From NCBI GenBank assembly GCA_964603945.1, contig CAZRWP010000005.1, positions 432 to 64,431 on the forward strand: 64,000 bases of DNA. Reading direction: 5' to 3'. A program made the translations under genes and the position numbers. This document shows positions 7,732-60,588 of this stretch, piece after piece. The notes below the pieces were generated by a model. That model saw nothing but the letters and a program-made list of their open reading frames with translations, made no database searches and was not told the DNA's origin. The DNA is from an uncultured Pseudomonadales bacterium. Lineage in GTDB: Bacteria > Patescibacteriota > Microgenomatia > UBA1400 > UBA1396. Numbering within the stretch: the stretch's first letter is position 1; each line of letters begins with the position of its first letter.

Positions 7732-8521
7732 CAGTTTGAGTCTGGCGATTTTGCATCGTAATCAAAGTCAGGAAATTACCGCGCTAATTGGCAAAGTTCC
7801 TGCTTGGATTTCTGAGATTTTAATAATTGATGATGACTCTACTGAATCTGAGTTATCTGCCTTATCTAAATTGGAAAAATCTAGACCTCAAGTCCGAGTT
7901 GTCAGCCACGCTTTGCAAAATGACTATTCTGCCCAGCGCAACTTTGCTTTGAGTCAGGCCCGAGGCAGTTGGACATTGTTTTTAGATGCCGATGAGCGTC
8001 CAGCGGGCGCGTTTTTTGATAAACTACAGCGCTTGCTTGAAAAGGAAGTCATTGAGGAATCTGGGGAGGGCGCCACCGCCTTTTCCATTATCCGCCATCA
8101 GGTATTTTTAGGCCGGGAATTACACCACGGCGACGGTGGCGCCCAGCGCCTGATCCGTTTAGCCAAAACCAAAGCCGGACAAGGTCGTTGGCGGCGCGCC
8201 GTGCATGAGGTCTGGGATTTCCCAACCAACCAAGTCAAACACTCAGACCTCACCATTACCCACCACAACTCAGCCAACATAACCGAATTTATAGCAAAGT
8301 TAAACCGCTACGCCGCTCTGGAGCCTGCGGTCAGACCTCGCCAGTCGCTTAGCACTCTACTAATACAACTGCTAATCTATCCTAAACTCAAATTATGCTA
8401 CAACTTCCTCTGGAAACGCGGAATAATTGACGGTTTTCCTGGTCTAGCTCACGCCTTATGCATGTCATATTATTCGGCGATTGTGCGCATCTATCTCTAT
8501 GAAAAACATCACACTAACTGA
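7724..8521 (+). CDS. Glycosyltransferase family 2
   Basis: GT2 motifs: ILIIDDDSTE, LFLDADERP (DxD), QNDYSAQRNFAL. Confidence 0.7.
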   Translation: MVNSLSLAILHRNQSQEITALIGKVPAWISEILIIDDDSTESELSALSKLEKSRPQVRVVSHALQNDYSAQRNFALSQARGSWTLFLDADERPAGAFFDKLQRLLEKEVIEESGEGATAFSIIRHQVFLGRELHHGDGGAQRLIRLAKTKAGQGRWRRAVHEVWDFPTNQVKHSDLTITHHNSANITEFIAKLNRYAALEPAVRPRQSLSTLLIQLLIYPKLKLCYNFLWKRGIIDGFPGLAHALCMSYYSAIVRIYLYEKHHTN

Positions 8522-9713: not shown

Positions 9714-9716
9714 AGT

Positions 9717-10529
9717 TTACTTATTCCCCTCTTTACTGCTGAACAGCCAAGTGCCCAGAGCAAATGAAATCAAGCCTAAAATCATAAAGATGGTGGCGTC
9801 GTACCAGATTGGATTGGAAACTACCAGGTCAAATTCTGGCCGTCCCATGAATAAAATGTTTCGCATTAGGTCAACGCCGTAATAAAGCGGATTGATGGAC
9901 TTTAAAATGTTCAAAATTAACGGCAGATTGTTGACCGGTGTAAAGGCGCCGCTTAAGAAAATCAGCGGAAAGACCAAAAATGGAAAGATTCTCTGAGCGC
10001 TTTCGGGTGTATCCAGGCGACTGGCGACTAATATTCCCATACTACCACCCACAAAGCTGGCTAAAATAATAATCGGTAAGGCGCTGAAGATTGTTGTTAG
10101 CGGAAAACTCACATTGACCAAAAAACCAAACAACATCAATCCAAGCACCTGAGCTAGGCCAACAAAACTTTCACCTAAGATTTTGCCTAAAATAATTGAA
10201 GCGCGGCTGATCGGCGAGACAAAAATGCCCATGGAAAAGTCCTTCTCGCGGTCAGTTATCAAAGACACAATGCCCATAAAACTGCTCTGGAAGATCGTCT
10301 GCAGAATTAAACCGGAAAATACATAATCCACGTAACTAAAACCGAGTTGCTGTGCTCCGATACCGGCGTCCAAGGTCACGGCAAAAATGCCTAAAAAGAC
10401 AATCGGAAAGATAAAAGTGCCGACAATTCTGCCCTTGTCACGCAAAAACTTTAACAGATCCCGCGTGGCCAGCATTAAAATATTGTTGAGCTCCCGCCGC
10501 CAATTCATGTTAAATATTTTCCAAGTCAT
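9717..10529 (-). CDS. ABC-2 type transporter permease
   Basis: About 6 TM helices of the ABC-2 family. Immediately downstream of the ATPase in the same orientation. Confidence 0.7.
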   Translation of the reverse strand: MTWKIFNMNWRRELNNILMLATRDLLKFLRDKGRIVGTFIFPIVFLGIFAVTLDAGIGAQQLGFSYVDYVFSGLILQTIFQSSFMGIVSLITDREKDFSMGIFVSPISRASIILGKILGESFVGLAQVLGLMLFGFLVNVSFPLTTIFSALPIIILASFVGGSMGILVASRLDTPESAQRIFPFLVFPLIFLSGAFTPVNNLPLILNILKSINPLYYGVDLMRNILFMGRPEFDLVVSNPIWYDATIFMILGLISFALGTWLFSSKEGNK

Positions 10530-10547
10530 GTTGATTCCAATTCATAT

Positions 10548-11504
10548 TTAATCCATTTTCCGTCCGGTGAGGTGAATAAAAACGTCATCCAGCGATGGCT
10601 GGCGAATGTTAATTTCTTGTATATCTGATTTAAGCTGAGCAATGATTTTTTGCGCCGGCAATTTGGCTGTCTCAATAATAAACATCTGATTGCGGCCAAC
10701 TTGGTACTCAATCTTCATTTTTTCCAACTCTTTTTTTAACTGACTGGGCTTTGTCGGCTGAAGGTACAAAAGCTCTTGGCCTATCTGCTTTTTTAACTTG
10801 TCTGGCGTGTCGGTCACCAGAATTTCGCCATGATCAATAATACTGAGACGGTCACAAACCTCGGCTTCTTCCAGGTATTGGGTGGTCAAAAACATGGTAA
10901 AGTTCTTTTCTTTTTGCAAGTCAATTAAATAATCCCAGATAGCGCGTCGGCTTTGCGGATCCAAACCGGTCGTTGGTTCGTCTAAAAACAGGATTTGCGG
11001 AATATGGAACAAGGCCTTAGCAATGTCGACGCGGCGGCGCATGCCGCCGCTCAGCTTCTTGACCACTTGGTGCTTGGTTTGCGGCAAGCCTACCAGCTCC
11101 AGCACCTCATCAAGCCGGCGCTTATACTTGTCTGACATCAGCGAATACAGCGGAGCATAATCGGCTTGGCCGTACAGCACGGCGTGAGATCGGAGATTTT
11201 CCTCAACCGTCAACTTTTCATCCAAGGAAACCTTTTGGTAAACAACTCCAATTGTGGCGCGAACTTTATCTGGATCATCATTAACATTAAAACCATTGAC
11301 AATCGCCTGACCAGAAGTTGGAAATAAAGACGTTACTAAAACGCTGATGGTTGTACTCTTACCAGCGCCATTTGGGCCCAAAAAACCAAAGATCTCGCCA
11401 CGCTTCACCTGTAAATCAATTCCGTCAACCGCGTTCTCCGGCTCACCGTGATAACGCTTGACTAAATCTTTTACATCAATGGCCAAATGAGACTTATTTT
11501 TCAT
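10548..11504 (-). CDS. ABC transporter ATP-binding protein (DrrA/ABC-2 exporter type)
   Basis: Walker A GPNGAGKST, signature LSGGMRRR, Walker B ILFLDEP, plus a C-terminal accessory domain. Confidence 0.85.
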   Translation of the reverse strand: MKNKSHLAIDVKDLVKRYHGEPENAVDGIDLQVKRGEIFGFLGPNGAGKSTTISVLVTSLFPTSGQAIVNGFNVNDDPDKVRATIGVVYQKVSLDEKLTVEENLRSHAVLYGQADYAPLYSLMSDKYKRRLDEVLELVGLPQTKHQVVKKLSGGMRRRVDIAKALFHIPQILFLDEPTTGLDPQSRRAIWDYLIDLQKEKNFTMFLTTQYLEEAEVCDRLSIIDHGEILVTDTPDKLKKQIGQELLYLQPTKPSQLKKELEKMKIEYQVGRNQMFIIETAKLPAQKIIAQLKSDIQEINIRQPSLDDVFIHLTGRKMD

Positions 11505-11544
11505 TTAGTTATTTCTATTAAGAGGATTTAGGCTCAATTCTATC

Positions 11545-13119
11545 TTATCTTGTTTTACTTACCATGGTCTTGTTTTCACGACTGGTAAAGTGACGGCCAT
11601 ATAAAAATAGAATTTCCCAGACCAGCTGAGTTAAATCTTTGACAAACCGCGTCGAATCTTCTGGGCTTAAATACTCAAATCTAAAAAAGCTATAGACCAG
11701 TTTATCTCTATTTAAAGCTGTTTTCCTGATTTTGCTTGAGAGGGCAATCGGTTCATTATTTACAACTTGAGTAATGATCCCAGGTGCCATAGATCCATTA
11801 GACTCTGATAACTGAGAATATCCATGGAGCAAATTAAAGACATTCAGCACCTGGGTGGGGTGGACGACTTGCTTTTGGGAAAAAGATCTGTGACCCGGTG
11901 TTGAGAGCACTTTTTGTTGGACGGCTTGCGAAAAATCAATTTGGTTTAGCTGATGGGCAGGAATTAAAAGTTGCACTTTAAACAGATCATCGGTTAAATC
12001 TAACCAGGTTTGAATTCTTTTTTTTAATTCAGAAAATTCAAATGGAATAACCCCACCCACTTTGTCTATCGAATCAATAAATTCCATTAATAGTTGTCTG
12101 GCATTTCTGATTTCCTTGGGTTGGCCGCGGTTATGGTTGAAAACAAGCTGTCTAGGCAGAGAACTACTGGCATGTAACCATGCTTGCTCAGATGTGCCTG
12201 GTCGAGTATGAAATTGAATAAACGGCTTAACAATAAATTCCTCTAATTGGTCTAGTTTGTCATCAAATTTCTTCAATAATTCCTTACTAAATTCAGCTTT
12301 AGTTAGTTCGCGTTCTGAATCAACCAATTCAGTTGTGAATCTTAGATGAGATGAATGTTTTGGTTTTTTCGAGGCAATTTTTCCCCAATCTTTAACTTTA
12401 AACCACGGATTATCCCACCTCATTCTTTGTTGAGCTAACTTTGGTAGATTTTTTAGGGGGTATTCATGATCTTCTGCCTCAAGTGGTTCTAAACTGAATT
12501 TATAGCCTAAGGCATGCAAAATATTTAAACTGAGCTGAGTTATTTGTTTAGCCAATTCGACATTATCATCACTGGATAAATTATTTATTGACATTTGGCT
12601 GAGAATACTCTGAATTTCTTGATCAACCCTGTTTAATCGAGATTGCCAATAGAAATCTGAGTTCTGCAATATATGAAATAACGCTAATAGTTCAGGCAAT
12701 ATACTGGCAATTAAGGTTGTGTTGTCAAGATAAGCTCGGTTTGGAACGCGGTCAGAATCCGAGTCACTTAAGGGCATCTTGACATACTTTTTCAACTGAA
12801 GAACAAACCAGTTAAACAACTTCTGTTGCGAAGGAGAAAATTCTGTGTAGTGAGCTTCCGTAATTAGTGAATTGCTTAAATTGTACCCATGATCCATTAT
12901 ATTTGGCGCCCTATTTGCTTTAGCAGTTTCTGGTTCTGGTCGTTTCTTTTCTTTAATTTCGCGATCAATGCTTTCAAAATTAAATGGGGGAACGAAATTA
13001 GTGAGATCATCATTTGCTGTCTGAGCTCTTAGTTCAATAACTGAGTCTTGAAATGCCTGGAAATTACCAGAACCATTTCTGGATCTTCCACTTCGTTCAA
13101 TGTCAAAGCTTCTTTTCAT
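11545..13119 (-). CDS. Hypothetical 524-aa protein, first gene of the ABC exporter operon
   Basis: Long ORF with no TM segment, signal peptide or known motif. N-terminus is basic; coiled-coil-like stretches are present. Confidence 0.5.
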   Translation of the reverse strand: MKRSFDIERSGRSRNGSGNFQAFQDSVIELRAQTANDDLTNFVPPFNFESIDREIKEKKRPEPETAKANRAPNIMDHGYNLSNSLITEAHYTEFSPSQQKLFNWFVLQLKKYVKMPLSDSDSDRVPNRAYLDNTTLIASILPELLALFHILQNSDFYWQSRLNRVDQEIQSILSQMSINNLSSDDNVELAKQITQLSLNILHALGYKFSLEPLEAEDHEYPLKNLPKLAQQRMRWDNPWFKVKDWGKIASKKPKHSSHLRFTTELVDSERELTKAEFSKELLKKFDDKLDQLEEFIVKPFIQFHTRPGTSEQAWLHASSSLPRQLVFNHNRGQPKEIRNARQLLMEFIDSIDKVGGVIPFEFSELKKRIQTWLDLTDDLFKVQLLIPAHQLNQIDFSQAVQQKVLSTPGHRSFSQKQVVHPTQVLNVFNLLHGYSQLSESNGSMAPGIITQVVNNEPIALSSKIRKTALNRDKLVYSFFRFEYLSPEDSTRFVKDLTQLVWEILFLYGRHFTSRENKTMVSKTR

Positions 13120-13317
13120 AGAATCTAAATTAATAGTTAGTTATTATTAAAAATAAATAGTATTTATCCTAAATAAAACCCGAGTCTAGCCTGCCTTGGT
13201 AAAGAAAATGTAAGAAATCCCGACAACAAAATTTTCAATAAATAAATCAGCTTAAAAAAGTAAAAGCCGTCACATTGTATTGGATCAGAAACAAAAATAT
13301 CATAAAAGTATGAAAAG

Positions 13318-13390
13318 TGAGCCCGGCTGGGATCGAACCAGCGACGCGCAGCTTAAAAGGCTGCCGCTCTAACCACTGAGCTACGGGCCC
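13318..13390 (-). tRNA. tRNA-Lys (anticodon UUU)
   Basis: Reverse complement GGGCCCGUAGCUCAGUGGUUAGAGCG-GCAGC-CUUUUAA-GCUGC-...GGUUCGAUCC...CGGGCUCA gives a clean cloverleaf. Confidence 0.85.
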
Positions 13391-13584
13391 GAGAACCTCT
13401 GAATTGTAACACAAGACGCCTCTAAAATAATCAATTAATTGGTCATAGTTCAATTGAATTTTGAACAATTTAACTACTAAAAACTGTAACCTTACGGCTT
13501 TCTTGCCCATTTCTTTTGATGTTATATCGCAAAATTATCATGATAATCTCTCGTACAAAAAATGAATTAGGACAAATCCGAAAT

Positions 13585-14787
13585 ATGAAAATAGCTCAAA
13601 TTGCTCCTATTATCGAAAGAGTTCCTCCCAAAAAATATGGTGGCACCGAGAGAGTGGTCTACACCTTAACAGAAAATTTGCTCAAAAGAGGTCATGAGGT
13701 AACACTATTTGCCTCTGGCGACTCACTCACTTCTGGCACATTACAAAGCATTATTCCACGTTCCATGCGTGAATTAGGCATTAGAGATCTCTATGGCTTA
13801 AATGAGTGGCCACTGATGAACTTGGGTCAAGCCTATAAGATGCAATCGGAATTTGACTTGATTCATGATCATCACCACTACATCAGCTTGCCGACTTCTC
13901 ATCTGGCCCAAAAACCAGTGATTATGACTTTACACGGTCCCGTTACCGTCAATCAAAAAAAGATGTTCACCATGTTCAACAATCCGTATGTGGTGACAAT
14001 TTCTCAGGCGCAACTGCCAAATCCAGGCCAAATTAACCATGCTGGTGTGATTCATAATGGCTTAGACATGGAAAATTACCCCTTTAGCGCTGAGCATGAG
14101 GGATATTTGTTATTTGTAGGTCGAATGTCAGAGGAGAAAGGTGTGCATGTGGCAATTGAAGTTGCTCGCACCCTGGGTTTGCCACTGATCATTGCAGCTA
14201 AACTGGACAGAATTGACCGCCGACACTTTGAAGAAAAAGTTGAGCCCTATCTCAATGACAATCAAATTAAGTGGGTGGGTGAAGTGGATGAGCATCAGCG
14301 AAATGATTTAATGAGTAAAGCTATGTGCTTACTACATCCTATTTCCTTTAGAGAACCGTTTGGTTTAAACATGATAGAAGCCATGGCTTGTGGCTGTCCG
14401 GTTATAGCTTTCAGGCGTGGTTCAATTCCGGAAATTATTGAAGATGGTAAAACTGGTTTTATTGTTGAGGATACAGTTGAGATGATTGAGAAGGTAGATG
14501 AGATAGAAATAATTGACCGAGCTTATTGCCGTGAGCACTCGCTTGCCAACTTCAATGCCGATAAAATGACCGATGCTTATGAAGAAGTATATCGCCAAGT
14601 ACTTGAGGCTGATAAACAACCTCTGGACCAAATCATTCCAGATTCAATCCAAACAAATGACCAGATCGCCAGCCAAACAAACACCAGGCTAAACAAAACA
14701 TCAAATAATGGTCAATCTTTAGCGCGCAAGCAGAAATTAATCACCAATCCAGAGGTGCTCTTCTCGGATAAATTTTTAAAGACTTAG
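13585..14787 (+). CDS. Glycosyltransferase family 1 (GT4-type)
   Basis: GT-B C-terminal signature EPFGLNMIEAMACGCPVIAFRRGSIPEIIEDGKTGFIV. Start taken at MKIAQIAPII. Confidence 0.75.
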   Translation: MKIAQIAPIIERVPPKKYGGTERVVYTLTENLLKRGHEVTLFASGDSLTSGTLQSIIPRSMRELGIRDLYGLNEWPLMNLGQAYKMQSEFDLIHDHHHYISLPTSHLAQKPVIMTLHGPVTVNQKKMFTMFNNPYVVTISQAQLPNPGQINHAGVIHNGLDMENYPFSAEHEGYLLFVGRMSEEKGVHVAIEVARTLGLPLIIAAKLDRIDRRHFEEKVEPYLNDNQIKWVGEVDEHQRNDLMSKAMCLLHPISFREPFGLNMIEAMACGCPVIAFRRGSIPEIIEDGKTGFIVEDTVEMIEKVDEIEIIDRAYCREHSLANFNADKMTDAYEEVYRQVLEADKQPLDQIIPDSIQTNDQIASQTNTRLNKTSNNGQSLARKQKLITNPEVLFSDKFLKT

Positions 14788-50588: not shown

Positions 50589-50703
50589 ACTTGTAAAACT
50601 TGTGGCAATATATGCCAAAACATTTGATTTAACTGCAGCTTAGATGGTCATTTCTATCTGGTGCCACGCCCTTATAACCACTAGATAGGGTATAATTAAA
50701 GAC

Positions 50704-50721
50704 TGTTCAATTAATTGAACA
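50704..50721. promoter_or_regulatory. Perfect 18-bp palindrome tgttcaattaattgaaca abutting the tRNA-His 5' end; TATAAT-like hexamer at 50691-50696
   Basis: Self-complementary 18-mer read directly from the sequence. It ends 1 nt before the tRNA-His G-1 (50723), and a -10-like hexamer lies 13 bp upstream. Confidence 0.35.
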
Positions 50722-50722
50722 T

Positions 50723-50797
50723 GGTGGTAGTAGCTCAGTTGGTTAGAGCGCCGCCCTGTGGAGGCGGAGGTCGCGGGTTCGAGTCCCGTTTACCACC
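50723..50797 (+). tRNA. tRNA-His (anticodon GUG) with encoded G-1
   Basis: G(-1)GUGGUAG-UA-GCUC-AGUUGGUUA-GAGC-G-CCGCC-CUGUGGA-GGCGG-AGGUC-GCGGG-UUCGAGU-CCCGU-UUACCAC-C. The extra 5' G pairing with C73 is the hallmark of tRNA-His. Confidence 0.8.
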
Positions 50798-50991
50798 CCC
50801 AATAACAAGAGTCTATTAGAACCTTTTTTTGGAATATAATTGTCAGGCTAAAAATTTCCCACGCCTAACGGCACCTAATGAAACTGGATCATACACTGAG
50901 AGCTTTATAACAAAGTTACAATGCCTGGTTGAGAAATACCTTGACTTACATGGAGTCTTGCGACCGCTACATTTGTAACTGGTGTCGTCTA

Positions 50992-51645
50992 CTATCTCAG
51001 AAATCTCTGTAAAGCTCGCGTCGCAATCTCAACATTTTCTTTTTCGATAATAAAAGAAAACTCTGTGTAGGTAGAGATCACTTCAGTAAAGTTAATTTTG
51101 TGCACGGCCAACGCAGCTTGCAGGGTATACAGTACATTCGGTACAGCGAGATACTCTTTTGAGAAACGAACGGTAAGGCCCACTCGATCCCGATAAATAA
51201 CTTTTGGCGATTCACCAAAGTGGTGCACAATATCCTCTAAAAGTACCTGTGGCGCAACAATCGTAATTTCCGACATGCTTTGCGTTACCGTAAAAAAGGC
51301 ATTCTCATCAAGCTCAATGTGGTTATATAAACTGATCATCTGTTTACGTGCCAGCTCGGTTTTACTGAACGAAATATCACACAACGGTGATTTTATGCTC
51401 AAATCATCTATGACCACCTGAGGTCGTAACGTGGTTGAACCATTCATCTCCTGTGCGATTCGCGTCAATGCCACCACCACCGTTCCTTTTTTCACCTCTT
51501 TAAACGTTCTCGCTTCAATGGAGGGCACAATCTGTTCCGCATACGCACTGAAGTTCAACAAACCCGACTGCAGAGCCTGCAGCGCTATGTCGTCTTCCAG
51601 TACATGTGACCTGGTGGCGTCGGTAATCGTTATCATATTTGTCAT
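50992..51645 (-). CDS. Hypothetical protein, possible ACT-domain (ACT_7-like) regulatory protein
   Basis: 217 aa. The C-terminal ...VISTYTEFSFIIEKENVEIA resembles ACT_7 domain ends. This is weak motif-level evidence only. It is the first gene of the GC-richer island. Confidence 0.35.
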   Translation of the reverse strand: MTNMITITDATRSHVLEDDIALQALQSGLLNFSAYAEQIVPSIEARTFKEVKKGTVVVALTRIAQEMNGSTTLRPQVVIDDLSIKSPLCDISFSKTELARKQMISLYNHIELDENAFFTVTQSMSEITIVAPQVLLEDIVHHFGESPKVIYRDRVGLTVRFSKEYLAVPNVLYTLQAALAVHKINFTEVISTYTEFSFIIEKENVEIATRALQRFLR

Positions 51646-51747
51646 ATTTATTACAATTTATACTTTTTTGTTAAATAGTTTTAATTATTTTACATTATAT
51701 CAGTCCAAAAGTACAATCCGACGCAGACAAAGAAAAAAAGGAAACCT

Positions 51748-52650
51748 ATGTCAGCAGAACAACAACCACCAACAGGCGAAGCCGTACAAAGCTTGTACAG
51801 CGGCGTCGATCATAATGCCAGCTGGGAGCGGAGCTACAACGCAGACGGTCGGGTCTTTATAAATCCACGTCGATTGCACGAAGCTTGGGAGGAGTTTCAG
51901 CAGAACTCACAGCGCCATGGTCGCCGTCGAGCAATCATGCGGTGTTACGTGACCCAAGAGGTGCTCAATCACAGTTCTCATTTACCGATTGAAGCAGTCG
52001 TTCCCATGGGAAACGAGTACTTGATTTGGATTGGACAGAATCAACACCCTCAAGTGTCCACCCAGGGACCTTACGCGAGCCGCACACCGTCTGAGTCCAC
52101 GCCCTTACATCGTGAGTACTACCTAGATACAGAGGTCAACAGCAGCGATATAGATCAATTAATTGAGTTGTGGGGGCAGTTTGGCTGGACACCACAAGCC
52201 ATCCGTAACTTTGTACGCAACAATGCCAACGGCAACCCCATTGCCCTCATTCGCACCATGGAGCAAGAGGCCGTCGGCGTGATGATTGCCGAGTCGGCGG
52301 AGTTTGGCGCCCATCGGTTGGTCGAAATCACCGAACTGGCGGTTCATCCCGACCATCGTGGGCAACATTTGGCCAGTGTGCTGATTCGAGAACTTTCGCG
52401 ACTGAGTTTGGAACGCTGGGAAGATGCTTTGGTTTTTGGTGAATACAACCTGACCACCCGTTCATACCAATCCGCTGCCCGAGCAAGCCAACTACCAGCA
52501 GTAACCGGAAGGGTGGATGGCGTTCTCCGTGATCACGTGGGAATCACAACCGGCGAGGGAAATCAGGTGATTGCTCCATGGGACACCCAGTGGCTGCACA
52601 ACTTCCTGGTGATGTACCAACCCAACCGCCGACTCCATCGTTATCGTTAA
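51748..52650 (+). CDS. GNAT family N-acetyltransferase with about 120-aa N-terminal extension (AcuA-like?)
   Basis: Acetyl-CoA-binding motif A ELAVHPDHRGQHLASVLIRELS. RBS AAAGGAAA. High-GC codon usage. Confidence 0.55.
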   Translation: MSAEQQPPTGEAVQSLYSGVDHNASWERSYNADGRVFINPRRLHEAWEEFQQNSQRHGRRRAIMRCYVTQEVLNHSSHLPIEAVVPMGNEYLIWIGQNQHPQVSTQGPYASRTPSESTPLHREYYLDTEVNSSDIDQLIELWGQFGWTPQAIRNFVRNNANGNPIALIRTMEQEAVGVMIAESAEFGAHRLVEITELAVHPDHRGQHLASVLIRELSRLSLERWEDALVFGEYNLTTRSYQSAARASQLPAVTGRVDGVLRDHVGITTGEGNQVIAPWDTQWLHNFLVMYQPNRRLHRYR

Positions 52651-52677
52651 TGAAGTAAAAGGAACACAAGAAACACT

Positions 52678-53682
52678 ATGAACATTTATTATAACTCACT
52701 CCACCATCGACATCGGCCACCCAACGAAATCTTCAATGGCAATCGCGATCCGCACCAAGAGGTGCCAGAACGCATTGATCACATTGTCAGTGCCTTGGAG
52801 GATATCAACCATACACTCATTGACACTCAACCCAGCGAGCAAGAGCAGCAAGACCTACTCACCGTACTCCATGAACTCCACACACGTGATTACCTGGGGT
52901 ACCTCCAAAACACCGAGTTTGGGGAAGAGTGCGTGTATCCAAGTGTGTTTTCGTATCGTCCAGAGGAACCTGCCTCAACACATCCGGTGGCCCAACGCGG
53001 GTTTTTCAGTTTCGATACGTACACTCCACTCAGTAGCACAACATTCCTGGCTGCGTTGCAGTCCGCTTACTTAGCACAACGGGCAGCCCTGGAAACGCTC
53101 AGCCATACTGGAGTTCAGTACGCACTCTGCCGGCCACCTGGTCACCACGCGGAATCAGCCCGCATGGGTGGATACTGCTACCTCAATAATGGCGCGGTGG
53201 CTGCCCAGACGTTGCGTAATGCGGATGAGCAGAATCGAGTAGCAATCCTGGACGTCGATTTTCATCATGGGAATGGGGCAGAGCAGATTTTTGGCGAAAC
53301 TGAGGAAATCCTGACCGTATCTTTGCATGCCGATCCCAATGAGCGCTTCCCGTTCTTCTCTGGACAAGAAACCGATGCCTACGTGAGCAACCACAACTTT
53401 CCATTGCCACTGGGTACAACCAATGCGCAGTACGAACAGGCGCTCGATGCGGCACTCGAACGCATCCAGCAGCACCGATCGTCGCACCTGGTGGTGTGCT
53501 TTGGAGCCGATACACACCAAAGTGATCCGATCGGTGGGTTTCTGCTTACCACGGACTTTTATACAACCATGGCCCGCCACATACGGGCCTTAGGCATTCC
53601 AACCGTCATCATCCAAGAGGGTGGCTACAACACCAGTGTTCTGGGCACCAACGTCGACGCCTTTTTGGCCGGCTTTCAGTAA
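52678..53682 (+). CDS. Histone deacetylase-family protein (AcuC/acetoin-utilisation or acetylpolyamine amidohydrolase type)
   Basis: Classic HDAC motifs CRPPGHHAE, DVDFHHGNG and EGGYN. Confidence 0.85.
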   Translation: MNIYYNSLHHRHRPPNEIFNGNRDPHQEVPERIDHIVSALEDINHTLIDTQPSEQEQQDLLTVLHELHTRDYLGYLQNTEFGEECVYPSVFSYRPEEPASTHPVAQRGFFSFDTYTPLSSTTFLAALQSAYLAQRAALETLSHTGVQYALCRPPGHHAESARMGGYCYLNNGAVAAQTLRNADEQNRVAILDVDFHHGNGAEQIFGETEEILTVSLHADPNERFPFFSGQETDAYVSNHNFPLPLGTTNAQYEQALDAALERIQQHRSSHLVVCFGADTHQSDPIGGFLLTTDFYTTMARHIRALGIPTVIIQEGGYNTSVLGTNVDAFLAGFQ

Positions 53683-53698
53683 ACTTTAGAGAGTACAT

Positions 53699-55207
53699 AT
53701 GGCACAATCCAGACTTCAAACCATGCGTGACGAACGCCTCGCAAAACTGCATCAACTGCAAGCATTGGGGATTCAAACCTACCCATCACACTCCCATCGG
53801 GACTACAGCAATCAGTATGCGGTTGAGAACTCCGCGCAACTCCAAGGTCAAACCCTTTCGCTGGTTGGGCGGGTCGTGTCTTTACGCCATCATGGCAAAT
53901 TAGCCTTCATTGATATCGAAGACGCGACCGGCTCAGTGCAGCTCTACGTAAAAAGAGATGTGTTGGAGCCACTGAACACTGAGCATCAAACCCTTGGATT
54001 TGAGCAACTCCGACTCCTGGATACCGGCGATTTTATTGAAGCTCGTGGCCAGATGACCACCACCAACAGCGGTCAAGTCTCGCTCATGCCTACCCACGTT
54101 CGATTACTGACCAAAGCGCTCAGGCCGCTGCCCACCCCACGTGATTTGGCCAGTGATCCTGAGTTTTTGTTTCGCCGCCGCTACGCCGATCTCGCCACCA
54201 ATGCCAGTCAACGCGCACTCTTTACGAGAAAAGCCGCATTCTGGCAAGCCAACCGTGATTTCCTGCAGCAAAATGGCTTTTTGGAAGTACAAGTGCCGGT
54301 ACTCGAACACGTCACCGGTGGCGCCGACGCGCGACCATTTGTCACGCATATGAATGCGCTGGATCAAGACTTTTTCTTACGCATCTCCACTGAGCTGTAC
54401 CAGAAAAGGCTCATTGGCGGCGGTTTTGAAAAAATCTATACGTTCGGCCCCAACTTTCGCAACGAGGGTATCAGTGACGAGCACTTACCCGAGTACTACC
54501 AGGTGGAATGGTACTGGGCCTATGCCGACTACAACGACAACATGGCATTAGTAGAAGAAATGTTCCAGTACATCGCCCAACAGGTCTACGGTACGTGCAC
54601 ATTTACCACCCGTGGGCATACGTTCCATCTAGACCAACCGTGGGAAAGAATCAGCTATCCCGACATCATTCAGGAGCGATTTGGTGTCGACATTTTTGAA
54701 ACACCAAATGATGAAATGCTGGCAATCATCCGACAGGCCGGTGTACACCTCACCGGTGCCATCAATCGCAATCGACTGATCGACAACCTGTGGAAACTCA
54801 TCCGCAAAGATATTTCTGGTCCGGCTTTCCTCATTAACGAGCCCGCCTTTATGTCACCCTTGTCGAAATCACGCCCTGATCGACCAGAATTGACCGAACG
54901 CTTCCACGTCATTATTGCCGGCAGCGAGCTCGGGAATGGCTACTCTGAGCTCAATAATCCACTGGAGCAATTTGATCGATTTCGAGACCAACAAGGCCAG
55001 CGCGATGATGGCGATGACGAAGCCCAGATGATGGATATCGATTACGTAGAAATGTTGGAGTACGGTATGCCGCCGACTTCCGGTTACGGCCACAGCGAGC
55101 GCATCTTCTGGTTTTTAGAAGATGTCACCTCCAAACAAGGAACGCTGTTCCCACCAGTCAAACACCGAGTTTCGTCGATTACGCGAACTATCTATGGGTT
55201 CGTGTAA
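53699..55207 (+). CDS. lysS: Lysine--tRNA ligase, class II
   Basis: N-terminal OB anticodon-binding domain, motif 2 (YTFGPNFRNEG), motif 3 (GYGHSERIFWFL). 502 aa. Confidence 0.9.
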   Translation: MAQSRLQTMRDERLAKLHQLQALGIQTYPSHSHRDYSNQYAVENSAQLQGQTLSLVGRVVSLRHHGKLAFIDIEDATGSVQLYVKRDVLEPLNTEHQTLGFEQLRLLDTGDFIEARGQMTTTNSGQVSLMPTHVRLLTKALRPLPTPRDLASDPEFLFRRRYADLATNASQRALFTRKAAFWQANRDFLQQNGFLEVQVPVLEHVTGGADARPFVTHMNALDQDFFLRISTELYQKRLIGGGFEKIYTFGPNFRNEGISDEHLPEYYQVEWYWAYADYNDNMALVEEMFQYIAQQVYGTCTFTTRGHTFHLDQPWERISYPDIIQERFGVDIFETPNDEMLAIIRQAGVHLTGAINRNRLIDNLWKLIRKDISGPAFLINEPAFMSPLSKSRPDRPELTERFHVIIAGSELGNGYSELNNPLEQFDRFRDQQGQRDDGDDEAQMMDIDYVEMLEYGMPPTSGYGHSERIFWFLEDVTSKQGTLFPPVKHRVSSITRTIYGFV

Positions 55208-55397
55208 CGCTTACACATGCGGCGCAGTGGAGGGAGTGGAAGTGAAAACCTTGTTCACTTTAGACACTTGGAGATATTAGATAGGAATTGAAGCAGGTCC
55301 TAATAGCGTCTCGAACTCTACCCATTTTTCAATTTTCATGGCTATCATTTGAATAATGATATATTTTGTTATATTTAGTTAAAACAGAAAGGCTATT

Positions 55398-55649
55398 ATG
55401 CGAAATTTAAAAGTAGAGGTCGTAAAAATTCAAATCATTTGATGATCTTAATGATGACATAGATGGGATAGTTGTTGGTGAGGTTAAATACTCTTGGGAG
55501 CTCAGAAAGCAAGATAAGCAAAAAGGCGTTTTTGGATACAGAGACAGCTATGGAATATTACTCAACTATTGGCACTTAATGGAATTGCTCACTCAGCAAG
55601 AGGGTTTAAACGCCGGCCTTGAAGATTACGATAATGTGTAAATGTTTCA
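55398..55649 (+). pseudogene. Possible frameshifted small ORF remnant
   Basis: MRNLKVEVVKIQII stops at TGA. The next frame continues DDLNDDIDGIVVGEVKYSWELRKQDK...EDYDNV. AT-rich context. No homology recognised. Confidence 0.2.
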
Positions 55650-55805
55650 TTAACTCTTAACGCTAAGCTCGAGTTAGTATTATAATTCTAGGAGATGACC
55701 TTTTGTGATCATTAAAACAAAGTACTATAAGTAAATACTTGATATCCTGAGCGGGAGCTAATCGAACATATTTGTTTTAGAGTTAAATTTCAATATTCTC
55801 AATTA

Positions 55806-55834
55806 TTGACAATTTGTAGCTTGCAACCTACAAT
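55806..55834 (+). promoter_or_regulatory. Promoter (TTGACA-N17-TACAAT) with overlapping operator-like inverted repeat, upstream of the toxin-antitoxin pair
   Basis: TTGACA 55806-55811, TACAAT 55829-55834. Inverted repeat ttgtag-N8-ctacaa (55814-55833) spans the spacer and -10. Confidence 0.45.
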
Positions 55835-55846
55835 TAAGAATAAATC

Positions 55847-56174
55847 ATGGAGATCCTAAAAACCGATATTTTCGACAAATGGTTGAAGAAAATAAAGGAC
55901 AAGAAAGCCAAAGCAATTATACAAGTCAATATTAACCGGCTAATGGAAGAAAACATCGGAAAAGCAAGGTCTGTTAGCGAAGGAGTCCATGAGAAGAAAA
56001 TTAACTACGGACCAGGATATAGACTCTATTTTTATAAACCATAATCAAAACATAATAGTTTTACTTTGTGGAGGAGACAAATCAACTCAACAAAATGATA
56101 TCAAGCAAGCTAAGCTTATTAGTAAAGAGATAAATAATGATCTGAAGGGAAAATATGAAGATAACAAATTATAA
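55847..56174 (+). pseudogene. HigB-like RelE/ParE-superfamily toxin (addiction-module killer protein), disrupted by a frameshift
   Basis: N-terminal part MEILKTDIFDKWLKKIKDKKAKAII...GPGYRLYFYKP ends at TAA near 56041. The conserved C-terminal block NIIVLLCGGDKSTQQNDIKQAKLI continues in the next frame (ORF 55989-56174). Confidence 0.65.
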
Positions 56175-56427
56175 CGCCACTGACTATTTAAAAACAGAAG
56201 AAGATATTAAAGAATACCTTAACGCTTCTTTTGCAACAGGGGATAATAAGCTTATTGCCAGAGCATTGGGCGATGTAGCAAAAATTAAAGGCATGAGCAA
56301 AATTGCCAAATCAACCAAGTTGGATAGAAGTAATTTATATAACTCACTCACTGTTGATGGAGATCCAAAATTGAGCACTCTAACTAAACTGATTGAAAGC
56401 TTTGGTTATACTTTTTCAATAAAATAA
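56155..56427 (+). CDS. HigA-family antitoxin (addiction-module antidote, HTH)
   Basis: 90 aa, MKITNYNATDYLKTEEDIKEYLNASF...LGDVAKIKGMSKIAKSTKLDRSNLYNSL matches the HigA antidote family. It overlaps the end of the toxin. Confidence 0.7.
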   Translation: MKITNYNATDYLKTEEDIKEYLNASFATGDNKLIARALGDVAKIKGMSKIAKSTKLDRSNLYNSLTVDGDPKLSTLTKLIESFGYTFSIK

Positions 56428-56490
56428 CTTTCATCAGCTAAACTTTGCCAAAACTCCGATTGAAAATCATCCGATTATTTTTGATATTAT

Positions 56491-56694
56491 ATGTTAGTGC
56501 AATGGTTAGGAATATTAACAGGATTTTTTAGTGGGATGGTCTGGGAGATGATTGCCACCGCGCCTTATAAAAATCACCAAACATTAATTAATAGCATTTT
56601 GCTCGATAACTATAATAAGTTGATTCATTTACATCACTGGGTACTCTATTTTTTTTCTAATAATCCTTCTAGTCATTTGGTCTGCCCGAACTGA
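56491..56694 (+). CDS. Small hydrophobic ORF, possibly a remnant of a membrane-protein gene
   Basis: 67-aa ORF with an N-terminal hydrophobic segment. Further hydrophobic coding-like fragments follow in other frames to about 56800. Confidence 0.2.
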   Translation: MLVQWLGILTGFFSGMVWEMIATAPYKNHQTLINSILLDNYNKLIHLHHWVLYFFSNNPSSHLVCPN

Positions 56695-56858
56695 TCGTCT
56701 CTTTCATCCTGCTGTTTTAATGATTATTTTCTTTTTATTGGGTGCCATCGCTTTCAATTATTATAAATATCAGGATTTTTTTATCTTTTTAAAGTAGTCC
56801 AATATCAATTAATACTTTCAAATGTATCCGTTAAGCAATTACCTGCTAAAATTCCTTT

Positions 56859-57395
56859 GTGATAACTAAAACTAATCATATAAAAACAAATTCGCTCTTT
56901 GGAAATCTTCATCGACCCCAACACGTTTTGATTGTCTTGATTGATCAGGACGGTAACTTTCTTTTAGGTCATAAGCCAAATTTTTACCCAAGCGGCATTT
57001 ACCGTTTTGTAGGTGGTGGTGTAAAGAAGGATGAGGAACCAGACACAGCAGTTGAACGAGAATTTGAAGAAGAGCTTGGTCTCAAGCCATGCCAACAAAA
57101 ACTTAAATTTCTGGCTCAGGTGAATACGATTGCTAACTATAACAACCAAGAATATACAAACCAAACGTTTCTGTATCTATATCAACTTGATGGCGAAGAA
57201 GCATTCAAAGCTGGCGATGACATTGAAGATTTAATTAATTTTACTCCCTTGGAGCTTCAAGAACTAATTTATGATTACTATAAACTAGATGATGATAACT
57301 GGTTTATTGTTAATGGCGAACCAATTCACTGCTGGTCAGATTACGGAAAAATGTATGGCTATATACATCAAGTGGCTCTGGACTTAGTTAGTTAA
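56859..57395 (+). CDS. NUDIX hydrolase
   Basis: Nudix box GGGVKKDEEPDTAVEREFEEELGL (GX5EX7REUXEEXGU). Confidence 0.8.
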   Translation: MITKTNHIKTNSLFGNLHRPQHVLIVLIDQDGNFLLGHKPNFYPSGIYRFVGGGVKKDEEPDTAVEREFEEELGLKPCQQKLKFLAQVNTIANYNNQEYTNQTFLYLYQLDGEEAFKAGDDIEDLINFTPLELQELIYDYYKLDDDNWFIVNGEPIHCWSDYGKMYGYIHQVALDLVS

Positions 57396-57544
57396 TAATA
57401 AAGGGGAAAGTAATTTGATATATAAGGAATATTTATTTATATAATAAGATGATAAGTATGAAATTACTCTTAACCTCGGCTGGCTTATCTAATCAATCAA
57501 TTGTCAAAGCATTATAGAATTTACTGGGCAAATCTGCCAATGGT

Positions 57545-58105
57545 GTGAAGTTAGCTTTTATCCCAACAGCAGCCAACGTCGAAGCTGGTGACAAGCATTG
57601 GATGATTGATGACTTTAATAATTGCCGCCAAGCTGGACTGGAAATTGATATCGTTGATATCTCTGCAACTGCTAAAGATGTCTGGCTACCAAGAATTCAA
57701 ACTACAGAAGTTTTGCTTTTTGGTGGCGGCAACACTTTTCATCTTAGACATTGGCTGAAAAAGTCGGGTCTTGAGGAAATATTGCCCGATTTACTTAAAT
57801 CTAGAGTTTATGTTGGTATCAGTGCCGGAAGCTGTATCGTTGGACCTACAATCTATAATTCCGTTCAAAATTTGTTTGGTGAAAAGTATGAATTAGAGAT
57901 AAAAGATGGATTAGGATTAGTTAGTCTCCAATTTATTCTCCATCTCAACTCAGATTATTTTGTTAAAATCCGCAAGGAAAATCTTAAAGTGGCGTCAAAG
58001 GATATCAAGGAGCCAGTCTATGCCTTGGACGATCAATCAGCTCTAATAGTTAATAACCAAGAAATCGAGGTCGTCAGTGAAGGTACTTGGTATCGTTTTA
58101 ACTAA
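57545..58105 (+). CDS. Peptidase S51 family (peptidase E/cyanophycinase-like); N-terminal 19 codons cut off by an in-frame TAG
   Basis: GISAGSCIVG nucleophile-serine motif, FGGGNTFHL. The ORF as given starts at GTG 57545. In-frame upstream ATG 57458 encodes the conserved family N-terminus MKLLLTSAGLSNQSIVKAL, followed by TAG at 57515-57517. Confidence 0.7.
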   Translation: MKLAFIPTAANVEAGDKHWMIDDFNNCRQAGLEIDIVDISATAKDVWLPRIQTTEVLLFGGGNTFHLRHWLKKSGLEEILPDLLKSRVYVGISAGSCIVGPTIYNSVQNLFGEKYELEIKDGLGLVSLQFILHLNSDYFVKIRKENLKVASKDIKEPVYALDDQSALIVNNQEIEVVSEGTWYRFN

Positions 58106-59232
58106 TTTTTAGGCTTTTTGGCATTAATTAACGGGTTATATTTAAGATTTAGTTTGATTTTGTCCCGTTCCTGCCAAATCAACCCAGCTACAAAAACTAG
58201 CACACCTAAAGCGGCCATGGCTTCCGCAAATTCGTTGACTATGACAGTGTCCCAATCAGCAAATCTATCTGCAGAATAGCCATATTCTGGAGTTAAATAG
58301 CGCTGAATTGACAACTGCAAAAAATAAATTGAGGTCACAAATCCGGGCAGCCAGCGAGAAACAATTTTCGCCTTGGCTTTAAACAACTTATCAGCCAGCA
58401 GCTTGAAAGCCGGCAGCACGGCTCCAGCCAAAATCCCAATCGCCACATAAGCCGGAACCACATGGTAGTAAATGCTTTTAAGATTATGCAATGTTATTTC
58501 ATGCTGAAGATTCTGCTCAGCGATAACGGCTGGCGTGGAGATGCCTAATATTCTTTGGCCCCATGAAACTTCTTCGCCGCCGATTACAAATAAACCAATC
58601 GCCGCCAAAAGCAAACCGAATTTAATTATTTTAGGCTCAATGTGCTGCTGCAGCCAAAAAAAGCCAAAACTGCTGATAATGAAAAACAGGGCAGTCGAGT
58701 ATTCAACAATTGAATCTTCCGCTATTAAGGTTAAAAATAGCTTGTTTTCAAATCTATATAAGTAGAGCATCAGACAGTAAAGCGGTATGGGCAGCAAGAA
58801 TGACAATATCTGGCCTCGCCGACGTAAATAACTCCATGGTAATGAAATTACGAAAAGCGAGGTCAGGATTATCGAAAAATATAATATTTCTTCGCCAAAA
58901 ATCCGATAAGCGGTAAAGCCATAATTAAACTCATAAATAAATTCCAGAAAATTAACCAGTAAACCCAACAGCAAGTGACTTATAGTCACAAGCAAAGTGA
59001 CGTCATGCACCTTGTGACTTACTAAACTAATCTTTTTGAAATCCAGTATCCTAATCATCAACAAACCAAAGGCGGCCAACAAATAAAAATAGCTTGAGGA
59101 AATGCCGATTCTTATCTGCCAATAGTCAGGAAATAACCGCCACTCTTGATACCCAACGATTAGTACACATAAAAACATGATTGATACAGCCAGTTGAGCG
59201 AAATATTCGCGAATCAAAGATTTATTAAGCAC
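58102..59232 (-). CDS. Hypothetical polytopic membrane protein
   Basis: 376 aa with about 9-10 hydrophobic helices. No family recognised. Confidence 0.5.
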   Translation of the reverse strand: MLNKSLIREYFAQLAVSIMFLCVLIVGYQEWRLFPDYWQIRIGISSSYFYLLAAFGLLMIRILDFKKISLVSHKVHDVTLLVTISHLLLGLLVNFLEFIYEFNYGFTAYRIFGEEILYFSIILTSLFVISLPWSYLRRRGQILSFLLPIPLYCLMLYLYRFENKLFLTLIAEDSIVEYSTALFFIISSFGFFWLQQHIEPKIIKFGLLLAAIGLFVIGGEEVSWGQRILGISTPAVIAEQNLQHEITLHNLKSIYYHVVPAYVAIGILAGAVLPAFKLLADKLFKAKAKIVSRWLPGFVTSIYFLQLSIQRYLTPEYGYSADRFADWDTVIVNEFAEAMAALGVLVFVAGLIWQERDKIKLNLKYNPLINAKKPKN

Positions 59233-59361
59233 TAAAGTAATTGTAACAATTTATTTATGATTGAACACTAAATAATTAAACTTAAAACGGAGCTACAATT
59301 AAACCAACGGTTATTGCTACAATCATCAAATAATCTTTAGACAAAAAGAAATGATATCTAA

Positions 59362-60588
59362 ATGCTAAAACGAATATTTATAATCTTGGCTATGTTTATA
59401 TGGGGAGTATTTTCTCTGATTCAACCAGCTATTGCCGATAGCCCAACCACCCTACATTTATTTTGGAGCAAGGGATGTCCGCATTGTGCTAAAGAAAAAG
59501 AGTTTTTGAATAAAATTGCACCAAAATATCAGAGTTTAATTGTTAAGGATTATGAAGTTTCCGGCGATCAAGCCAATGCTCGGCTATTAAGCCAGACTGG
59601 TCAAGCCTTACAAACAGAGGTTTCAGGCGTACCGTTTACCGTAATTGGCGATAAACATATTACTGGCTATTTTAATGATGAAAGCACTGGCCAGACAATC
59701 GAGTCCTTAATTCAAGAGTCACTTACAAATCCATCACGCGACGCAGTTGGTGATATCTTGTCAGCTTCAGAAGAGGAATCAAACAATCCCGCTGCCAACA
59801 CCAAGTCTCAAAATACACCTAACTCAGCCCAGCTTACTGACATCAACTTTAGTTTGCCCGTAGTTGGTACTATCAGCGCTGAAACTTTTTCTTTACCATT
59901 CCTGACTATTATTATTGCTTTTTTGGACGGATTCAATCCTTGCGCCATGTGGATTTTGATATTTCTAATCAGCTTACTGCTTAATATGCAGGATCGGCGC
60001 CGCATGTGGTTATTGGGCGGCACGTTTATTATGGCGTCATCGGTAGTTTATTTTCTGTTTCTAACTGCTTGGCTAAATTTCTTTTTACTGGCTGGCTTTA
60101 TCTCTTGGATTAGACTCCTGATAGGCTTGTTTGCGATTGGAGTTGGAATCTATCAATTGAGAGCTGTTTGGCAAAATCCTGATGGCGGTTGCAAGGTGGT
60201 AGATGGCAGTAAACGAAAAGTTTGGCTCGAACGAATGAAGTCAGTGGTTAGTGAACAACGACTCTGGCTGGCAATGGGTGGCATGATCGCCTTAGCGGCC
60301 GCGGTCAACATGGTAGAGCTGGTTTGTTCAGCTGGTCTACCGGCCATTTATACGCAAGTTCTGTCACTATCTGAACTGCCAACTTGGCAATATTACGCCT
60401 ATTTACTCCTATATATCTTAATTTTTATGTTGGATGATCTACTGATATTTTTCTTAGCCATGACAACCTTGCGTACGGTAGGAATTGAAGGCAAATACGC
60501 CAAGTATTCTCATCTGATTGGCGGGATTATCATCTTGATCTTGGGTATTCTGTTAGTTTTCAAGCCAGAATGGCTGATGTTTGGTTGA
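59362..60588 (+). CDS. Thioredoxin-fold/CcdA(DsbD-like) fusion, thiol:disulfide interchange membrane protein
   Basis: Signal peptide plus CxxC thioredoxin motif (WSKGCPHCAKEKEFL), then a DsbD/CcdA-type TM core with conserved Cys (GFNPCAMWIL, LVCSAGLPAIY). Confidence 0.7.
   Translation: MLKRIFIILAMFIWGVFSLIQPAIADSPTTLHLFWSKGCPHCAKEKEFLNKIAPKYQSLIVKDYEVSGDQANARLLSQTGQALQTEVSGVPFTVIGDKHITGYFNDESTGQTIESLIQESLTNPSRDAVGDILSASEEESNNPAANTKSQNTPNSAQLTDINFSLPVVGTISAETFSLPFLTIIIAFLDGFNPCAMWILIFLISLLLNMQDRRRMWLLGGTFIMASSVVYFLFLTAWLNFFLLAGFISWIRLLIGLFAIGVGIYQLRAVWQNPDGGCKVVDGSKRKVWLERMKSVVSEQRLWLAMGGMIALAAAVNMVELVCSAGLPAIYTQVLSLSELPTWQYYAYLLLYILIFMLDDLLIFFLAMTTLRTVGIEGKYAKYSHLIGGIIILILGILLVFKPEWLMFG

Follow-up and report, generated by a model that had tools for sequence, protein, structure and literature searches.

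In Bacillus subtilis, the AcuABC system consists of a GNAT acetyltransferase (AcuA), a CBS-CBS-ACT protein (AcuB), and a class I deacetylase (AcuC), and its genes are divergent from acsA. The residue targeted by AcuA and Pat is the A10 lysine of ANL enzymes, a kind to which lysyl-tRNA synthetase (LysRS) does not belong. Shortage of lysine is met by the L-box lysine riboswitch and T-box regulons, in which genes for lysine synthesis, lysine transport, and LysRS (lysK/lysS) are turned on when lysine or Lys-tRNA runs short. The locus described here lies in a 64,000-nucleotide (nt) stretch of contig CAZRWP010000005.1, referred to below as the window, from a Patescibacteria-like bacterium with a small genome. 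It pairs a gene for an ACT-type protein, designated ORF-A, with a divergent operon for a GNAT-like acyltransferase, an HDAC-family deacetylase (GNAT and HDAC below), and LysRS. In a preliminary description of the window, the arrangement was read as an AcuABC-like switch co-inherited with lysS. On the evidence that follows, it has the look of a set of emergency genes for lysine shortage, of a kind not described before, rather than of a protein-acetylation switch.

It is considered somewhat probable that the locus is a lysine-starvation regulon, in which ORF-A is a lysine-sensing repressor that controls a small-molecule N-acetyltransferase, a deacetylase, and LysRS. The features of the locus, in order along the window, are as follows.

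50723-50801 (ARAGORN) or 50724-50797 (Rfam, 68 bits), forward strand: tRNA-His(GTG), neighbour upstream of the module
50992-51636, reverse strand: ORF-A, 214 amino acids (aa), putative lysine-sensing regulator in which a four-helix domain at the N terminus is joined to a pair of aspartokinase-type ACT domains
51637-51658: O1, operator-like dyad with the core TGTCA-N6-TTACA at 51640-51655, abutting the ORF-A start codon
51669-51694: O2, second dyad, TGTTA-N16-TTACA, overlapping the -35 hexamer of the putative operon promoter
51689-51717, forward strand: promoter-like TTTACA-N17-TACAAT, ending 30 nt before the GNAT start codon
51748-52650, forward strand: two-domain GNAT-like N-acyltransferase, 300 aa, with an N-domain (28-98), a GNAT core (124-297), and no lysine
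52678-53682, forward strand: HDAC, zinc deacetylase of the acetylpolyamine amidohydrolase (ApaH) type by sequence, 334 aa, with all catalytic motifs and no lysine
53699-55207, forward strand: lysS, class II LysRS, 502 aa, without an appended domain and lysine-depleted in this lineage

The tRNA gene and all four open reading frames (ORFs) exist where the preliminary description had placed them, as judged by ARAGORN, Rfam, and the ORF calls. The mechanical reading frame of ORF-A reaches 51645, and family members begin at the methionine encoded at 51636. A spacer of 190 nt separates tRNA-His from this frame, and the genes of the operon are tightly packed, with gaps of 27 nt (GNAT-HDAC) and 16 nt (HDAC-lysS). 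Neither a second lysS nor any gene for lysine biosynthesis by the diaminopimelate (DAP) or aminoadipate pathway was found within the 64 kb.

The products of the operon avoid the very amino acid that LysRS consumes. Lysine is absent from the 300 residues of the GNAT (0%) and from the 334 residues of the HDAC (0%), and LysRS has only 12 in 502 (2.4%), as compared with a mean of 5.6% (standard deviation 2.0, minimum 2.3) in the 48 other proteins of the window. The K/(K+R) ratio of LysRS, 0.24, is lower than that of all 48. By our own arithmetic, the probability of finding no lysine in the 634 residues of GNAT plus HDAC is ~1e-16 at a lysine content of 5.6%. Orthologues elsewhere share the tendency, with median lysine contents of 1.7% for GNAT-like proteins (n = 23, p = 6e-13) and 2.7% for the HDACs (n = 14, p = 9e-8), and values of 0.9–1.4% occur in GCS2-type ligases (n = 3, p = 1.6e-3); the comparison set was 193 other neighbouring proteins, at 6.7%. 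The change is also directional. Relative to their orthologues in locus L006 (loci are given L-numbers throughout), the window's four proteins have lost lysine at ~35 positions and gained it at 1, and LysRS, which is 84% identical to its L006 orthologue, has lost 17 lysines and gained 1. Low content of the cognate amino acid is a documented signature of pathways built during starvation for their own product (PMC4209129). Lysine avoidance therefore implies that the products of the operon are synthesised under lysine scarcity and serve lysine supply.

A second line of evidence is the company these genes keep in other genomes. The close GNAT family comprises 15 clusters among 5.8 billion proteins, and in every recovered context the gene sits between a divergent ORF-A and an HDAC, in neighbourhoods that are otherwise unrelated. 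Within this close family, the window and Candidatus Pacebacteria CG10 (L006/L007) are the only cases in which lysS comes next. In the wider set, lysS also follows in L019/L020, L033, and L035, and it pairs with a GNAT-like gene in L036. Linkage of the ACT, GNAT, HDAC, and lysS genes is thus non-accidental, as had been supposed, and the synteny recurs elsewhere.

Scanning metagenomes with an ORF-A profile yielded 80 further loci, and in nearly every case ORF-A is transcribed divergently from the genes upstream of it. Contexts were counted in 47 dereplicated neighbourhoods that extend upstream by at least 1.2 kb. A GNAT-like gene is a neighbour in 18 of the 47, an HDAC in 14, LysRS in 12 (11 class II and 1 of the non-homologous class I), and lysine-biosynthesis genes in 12; at least one of these four classes is present in 37. 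The biosynthetic neighbours belong to the DAP pathway (ask, asd, dapA, dapB, dapF, lysA) or to the aminoadipate pathway (homocitrate synthase, lysX, lysY, lysZ). For example, ask-dapB-dapA-asd lies beside ORF-A in L086. Further neighbour families are the GNAT-like proteins, including a 375-aa form, usually followed by an HDAC and often then by LysRS (L019, L033, L035), and a GCS2-type ligase with an M20 peptidase. Class II LysRS is the direct neighbour of ORF-A in L015 and L049, and in L039 a neighbour is a class I LysRS fused to a B3_4 domain. Because these partners are non-homologous, representing two LysRS classes and two pathways, the factor common to them is lysine rather than shared ancestry of a gene cluster. 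An MFS transporter adjoins the module in L006, L016, and a JGI contig. In L016, a 243-aa protein and dapF fill the slot taken by GNAT-HDAC in the syntenic L006, and dapF is then followed by lysS.

In L064-L066 (~3300-14100), lysA, LysRS, ORF-A, dapF, an amino-acid kinase without an ACT domain, asd, dapA, dapB, and a second ORF-A paralogue lie within 11 kb. In a distant subgroup (L069, L074, L082, L093; ORF-A 31–34% identical), an M23 peptidoglycan peptidase replaces the HDAC after the GNAT-like gene, and in L073 ORF-A faces an Amidase_3 cell-wall amidase. Such neighbours hint that the regulon is linked to peptidoglycan, which contains lysine or DAP. Three trio-carrying metagenome-assembled genomes (L011, L012, L013) are labelled ‘uncultured Gammaproteobacteria’ or ‘Pseudomonadales’, and yet the named genomes closest to them are those of Patescibacteria; either these labels are mistaken or the module could have a wider distribution than is apparent.

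The one gene that all of these loci have in common is ORF-A. Taken singly, it scores below threshold on the Pfam ACT_7 model (18.3 bits against a cutoff of 27), and its earlier designation as a possible ACT-domain protein would fail on that score but is rescued by family and fold evidence. The best structural matches are the beta (regulatory) subunits of aspartokinases, with two ACT domains in the aspartokinase arrangement, and CBS domains are absent. Relatives of ORF-A form 654 clusters at 50% identity. No sequence in PDB matches the full protein, no described family was found to match it, and a literature search on the family came back empty. The ORF-A family is a previously undescribed family of putative regulators, and ORF-A itself is a probable lysine sensor, genomic context being what points to lysine as its ligand.

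A third line of evidence is found in the DNA between the divergent genes. Directly upstream of ORF-A lies the dyad TTGTAAT-N4-ATTACAA, with half-sites TGTAA and TTACA, which was examined in 73 non-redundant ORF-A upstream regions with all half-site spacings from 0 to 25 scanned. The dyad is exact in 25 of the 73 loci, whereas shuffled sequences averaged 0.9 and never exceeded 4, and when one mismatch is allowed it is present in 53 (14 in shuffles). From its density in the remaining sequence of the loci, ~0.45 loci with a dyad would be expected by background. With respect to spacing, a gap of 6 (at most one mismatch) occurs in 51 loci as opposed to 5.5 in shuffles, and a gap of 16 in 29 as opposed to 5.3, 14 of them exact. 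These two spacings differ by one helical turn. Gaps of 3–4 show a minor rise only (15–17 loci), and no other spacing is comparably enriched. When the 64 kb were scanned with a weight matrix derived from these sites, the only site of at least 15 bits was at 51637-51658 (20.4 and 20.8 bits), the next best (14.1 bits) being inside a coding region. ORF-A is the likeliest binder of the dyads, since it is the sole gene common to all loci. The promoter-like TTTACA-N17-TACAAT has 10 of 12 consensus matches, from a consensus scan that reports pattern match only. Neither a riboswitch nor a T-box was detected in the leader or spacer, where an Rfam search gave only the tRNA at E ≤ 1.

In a subgroup associated with the aminoadipate pathway (L083, L087, L090, L096, L099, L100), the TGTAA dyad is lacking and a different palindrome, GTCAAATTT-N7-AAATTTGAC, is located ~60 nt upstream of ORF-A; a MerR-family gene lies just downstream of ORF-A in the same six loci. 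In L016 (283-927), the ORF-A sequence is called as two separate genes of 115 and 62 aa and is probably a pseudogene, with the upstream dyad kept (18 bits).

The enzymes of the operon are of the expected general kinds, although the GNAT and the HDAC are not closest to the families first proposed. The HDAC is a member of PF00850 (1.4e-59, Pfam) and has the motifs CRPPGHHA, DVDFHHGNG, GADTHQSDP, and EGGY, with zinc ligands and catalytic tyrosine kept, so that its assignment to the HDAC family with all canonical motifs stands. Its further label of ‘AcuC-like’ does not: solved ApaH structures are matched from end to end (9gkz, 5e-63; 6phr, 9e-53; 3q9b, 8e-52), far better than HDAC8 and the class I (AcuC-kind) enzymes, which match at ~1e-18 and over part of the length. 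In a survey of bacterial deacylases, RPPGHH together with EGGY was given as the hallmark of cluster 4 (ApaH-like), with AcuC placed in cluster 2c (PMC11532494, Graf et al. 2024). By these markers the protein is predicted to be of the ApaH type, cluster 4, and not an AcuC. It reads PIG where ApaH has the PIS gatekeeper, and the region aligned with the L1/L2 loops, from which the head-to-head dimer of ApaH is built, has two gaps and is ~9–10 residues shorter.

The GNAT scores 27.2 bits on PF00583 (Pfam), and the GNAT fold and the beta4-alpha3 pyrophosphate loop are present. Among members of the GNAT-like family, the curated model matched most often is AblB (9 of 20, best E = 8.4e-10). The GNAT of the window reaches 21.7 bits on that model (TIGR03827), whose trusted cutoff is 205.1, and is best described from its sequence as a distant AblB relative and not an equivalog. 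No sequence match was found in PDB, and none of the model and structure searches bore out the ‘AcuA-like motif A’ formerly ascribed to the protein. Acetylation of free lysine or beta-lysine is an activity for which GNATs are known (PMC9049628).

LysRS was correctly named in the preliminary description. It is a class II enzyme above the cutoff of NCBIfam NF001756 (471.4 bits against 468) and just below that of TIGR00499 (419.7 against 427.6), with the class II core PF00152, the OB fold PF01336 (Pfam), and a motif 2 reading FRNEG. Thousands of homologues at 60–84% identity occur in Patescibacteria-type assemblies. Many LysRS proteins of this type, among them one at L019 3603-5678, carry C-terminal fusions, to an HD phosphohydrolase (~700 aa), a B3_4 domain (~735 aa), or DUF2000 (~650 aa), whereas that of the window is unfused; the B3_4 fusion is also found on class I LysRS (L039, 4082-6478). 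Two full-length class II LysRS genes co-exist in L036 (3492-10083), one a 716-aa HD fusion beside homocitrate synthase and ORF-A, and the other a 478-aa copy whose stop overlaps the start of a GNAT-like gene.

How the parts might work together can be proposed as follows. ORF-A would sense lysine through its aspartokinase-type pair of ACT domains. At high lysine it would occupy O1 and O2 and repress both itself and the divergent operon, and at lysine shortage GNAT-HDAC-lysS would be expressed, with the GNAT and the HDAC makeable without lysine. The AblB-like and ApaH-like enzymes would act on a free lysine-type amine and not on proteins, such that an N-acetyl group is added to or removed from lysine or a close derivative and lysine is thereby captured, held, or released for LysRS. 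As to the chemistry, N-acetyl-lysine could be a source from which lysine is freed, imported lysine could be captured and released in a cycle, or the two enzymes could provide protection and deprotection in a short synthetic route. This proposal comes close to a secondary idea of the preliminary description, that of an acetyl-lysine route feeding LysRS.

Several observations weigh against this proposal. Characterised ApaH enzymes prefer acetylated polyamines (PMC11532494). A transferase and a hydrolase made from one operon for the same compound would constitute a futile cycle, and the substrates of the GNAT and the HDAC may for that reason differ from each other. The best profile match of the ORF-A N-domain, a PadR winged helix-turn-helix (HTH) domain in PDB, is in register and not significant (E = 0.41), and the domain is near-neutral rather than basic (median pI 6.6). 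The ligand of ORF-A could be threonine or some other amino acid. The dyad partly coincides with -10- and -35-like hexamers, and because of this overlap promoter conservation adds to the dyad signal. LysRS is not lysine-poor outside this lineage. Finally, lysine starvation accounts for no part of the synonymous shift in base composition that sets the operon apart.

That shift concerns the G+C (GC) content of the three operon genes, which is 0.536 for the GNAT, 0.532 for the HDAC, and 0.514 for LysRS, with values at third codon positions (GC3) of 0.558, 0.573, and 0.575, respectively. The 50 other genes of the window have a mean GC of 0.428 (standard deviation 0.033, maximum 0.479) and a mean GC3 of 0.395 (standard deviation 0.060, maximum 0.524). 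ORF-A (GC 0.439, GC3 0.482) is within the host range, its GC3 being intermediate between host and operon. Sharp steps at ~51750 and ~55210 correspond to the coding limits of GNAT-HDAC-lysS. Sliding GC and codon-usage comparisons thus bear out the compositional break noted in the preliminary description, but since the ACT-like ORF is not GC-rich, the GC-rich block comprises three genes and not the four originally included. GC also rises to as much as 0.50 at 51400-51600, in the 5′ part of ORF-A beside the intergenic region, and a recombination breakpoint inside ORF-A is possible.

Amino-acid content, with lysine purged and arginine raised, makes up about one-quarter to one-half of the GC excess, and the remainder is synonymous. 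A lysine-to-arginine shift was ruled out as the whole cause of the rise, because GC3 at residues identical to the L006 orthologues is still 0.56–0.57 and because the excess over host-codon expectation is z = 2.7 to 3.7. Codon bias due to high expression was likewise ruled out, as the ribosomal protein genes of the window do not have high GC3. The synonymous shift is compatible with allelic replacement and is otherwise unexplained. That the three-gene operon was recently replaced, through homologous recombination with an allele from a GC-richer, module-carrying relative, is a serious possibility that falls somewhat short of being probable, and it is compatible with any of the functional readings. 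Such an event would fit the elevated GC3 at L006-identical residues, the boundaries that are sharp at the operon ends with ORF-A intermediate, and the existence of GC-richer carriers of the module (L013, L014). The donor sequence was not found, however, integrase, att repeat, and transposase are all missing, the gene order is ancestral in the clade, and the lysine purge itself produces part of the GC rise.

Arrival as a tRNA-integrated island is not supported. No direct repeat of the tRNA-His 3′ end occurs within 50600-60000, no integrase or transposase is found among the flanking genes, and the same four-gene order exists in L006/L010 at 67–84% identity with a GC of 0.38–0.43, as compared with a locus GC of 0.41, so that the module is compositionally native in the relative L006. 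Of the features of an island acquired beside the tRNA, as envisaged earlier, the compositional break is present, over three genes and in part owing to amino-acid content, and the marks of integration are lacking. The downstream DNA was described accurately: its GC is 0.26–0.38, and it carries a split toxin gene. This Gp49/HigB-type toxin is divided into two ORFs of 65 and 61 aa and is intact at 103 aa in the contig of another strain (L003); together with the intact HI1420-type antitoxin that follows it (56155-56427), it represents a decaying toxin-antitoxin pair. The region concerned is 55847-56427 in the window and 2528-3108 in L003. The low-GC DNA beyond the operon also contains, at 57545-58105, genes for a peptidase S51 of the dipeptidase E or cyanophycinase family and for a NUDIX protein. 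An anti-phage defence system was also considered and rejected, as PADLOC returned nothing meaningful.

With regard to function, the alternative that survives best concerns ORF-A. It is conceivable, though unlikely, that the protein is a free-standing allosteric subunit resembling aspartokinase beta, which binds lysine and regulates partner enzymes directly, and that the dyad is a promoter or the site of another factor. Aspartokinase beta subunits are after all its top structural matches, the N-domain is not basic and has no significant HTH match, and in L064-L066 and L086 ORF-A lies near amino-acid kinases without ACT domains of their own. Yet ORF-A is kept in loci that have no aspartokinase, including the 64-kb window, and its near-constant divergent orientation, with a helical-turn-spaced dyad beside the only constant gene, is the classic signature of an autoregulated transcription factor. 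The weight matrix, moreover, yields no further strong site among the many promoters of the window.

A second alternative retains the tie to lysine and changes the role of the enzymes. The GNAT and the HDAC would here perform the protect and deprotect steps of lysine biosynthesis, as non-orthologous replacements for DapD/DapH plus DapE/DapL or for LysX plus LysK, with the middle steps encoded elsewhere. Acylating and deacylating partners of ORF-A do come in three chemistries (GNAT with HDAC, GCS2-type ligase with M20, and LysX with M20-type neighbours), the 243-aa protein and dapF of L016 stand at the GNAT-HDAC slot of L006, and a lysine-poor composition is typical of biosynthetic enzymes. This reading is nonetheless judged improbable, as no DAP or aminoadipate gene is present in the 64-kb window or beside the trio in any trio locus, and no action of ApaH on N-acyl-DAP is known. 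Patescibacteria generally lack amino-acid biosynthesis, which argues in the same direction.

The AcuABC-like switch of the preliminary description appears very improbable. According to that idea, the GNAT would modify LysRS by acetylating one of its lysines, the HDAC would reverse the modification, and the ACT protein would modulate the pair, so that LysRS activity is tuned. The tight spacing of GNAT, HDAC, and lysS (27 and 16 nt) and their recurrent linkage would suit it, as would the observation that a Pseudomonas ApaH deacetylates peptides and AcsA to some extent (PMC11532494). The Acu families, however, include none of the three proteins: the idea fails because the HDAC appears to be of the ApaH type, the GNAT is nearest to AblB, and ORF-A is an aspartokinase-type double-ACT protein without CBS domains. 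It is on this ground of membership that the AcuABC interpretation is rejected, while the link to lysS is upheld and widened. Dimerisation restricts ApaH-type active sites to small substrates (PMC11532494). LysRS is a class II enzyme and not an ANL enzyme, there are at least six distinct contexts in which lysS is not adjacent to the trio, and some of the operons partnered by ORF-A encode lysine biosynthesis and no enzymes of acetylation.

Least probable of all is that the pair acetylates and deacetylates cadaverine or putrescine, the customary ApaH substrates, and is tied to lysine only via lysine-derived cadaverine: the HDAC is a full-length ApaH homologue with cluster-4 motifs and GNATs of the SpeG/SSAT kind acetylate diamines, but no locus contains a lysine decarboxylase or polyamine gene, the GNAT is nearest to AblB and not SpeG, the ApaH loop region of the HDAC is ~10 residues shorter, and both the avoidance of lysine and the shared regulation with LysRS and lysine synthesis speak for a role in supplying lysine and not in removing it.

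The lysine-starvation reading, which is preferred over these, can be extended. In its most ambitious form, which is put forward tentatively and is more likely to fail than to hold, ORF-A would represent a large undescribed family of lysine-responsive transcription factors, each with a small helical DNA-binding domain and the Lys-binding ACT pair of aspartokinases. In many uncultured lineages these factors would take the place of the lysine riboswitch, and their targets would be lysine synthesis, both LysRS classes, and, in Patescibacteria, a lysine-free GNAT/HDAC pair that runs acetyl-CoA-driven capture (N-acetylation of imported lysine) and release (deacetylation, feeding LysRS). If true, an auxotrophic symbiont would here have a hitherto unrecognised means of securing an essential amino acid. 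Most amino acids cannot be made by Patescibacteria and other ultra-small bacteria, whose ways of sensing and surviving a shortage are little understood. The locus offers a concrete, testable system in this respect, with a candidate lysine sensor whose family numbers hundreds of uncharacterised clusters, a candidate operator, and an operon with lysine-purged enzymes. With 0 lysines in 634 residues, the two enzymes are among the clearest conceivable cases of cognate-amino-acid avoidance. The proposed role would also give an ApaH-type deacetylase and an AblB-like acetyltransferase their first physiological context outside polyamine and osmolyte metabolism, and the case cautions against labelling GNAT and HDAC pairs as protein-acetylation switches by analogy.

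In comparison with described systems, the locus shares with AcuABC a GNAT, a zinc deacetylase, and an ACT protein encoded beside an acyl- or aminoacyl-adenylate-forming enzyme. The families differ, however; the divergent gene is that of the ACT protein and not that of the target enzyme, the neighbour is a class II aminoacyl-tRNA synthetase, and the GNAT and HDAC look like small-molecule enzymes. With the ApaH enzymes of cluster 4, the HDAC has in common full-length homology, the RPPGHH and EGGY motifs, the zinc ligands, and the catalytic tyrosine. It differs in having PIG for PIS, a shorter loop, no lysine, and a context of lysine rather than polyamine metabolism. The likeness to AblB, the beta-lysine acetyltransferase, lies in the two-domain GNAT architecture, AblB-type enzymes acting on free lysine-type amino acids. 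Lysine 2,3-aminomutase (ablA/kamA), in contrast, is absent among the called genes around the window locus and the other trio loci, and the GNAT has a deacetylase and LysRS as its partners here, with control exerted by a putative lysine sensor instead of by osmotic conditions.

With respect to regulation, the double-ACT fold of ORF-A is that through which aspartokinase beta subunits bind lysine or threonine, and the logic of an amino-acid-responsive regulator divergent from its target operon is shared with the ACT or RAM regulators TyrR and Lrp/LysM. Unlike these, ORF-A is a stand-alone protein of 214 aa with a novel N-terminal helical domain, and it occurs without any aspartokinase. The TyrR box is TGTAAA-N6-TTTACA, and its similarity to the TGTAA-N6-TTACA dyad is probably coincidental. 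The regulon content is the same as that of the L-box and T-box systems, but no RNA element was detected at this locus, where a candidate protein sensor and its DNA dyads would stand in its place.

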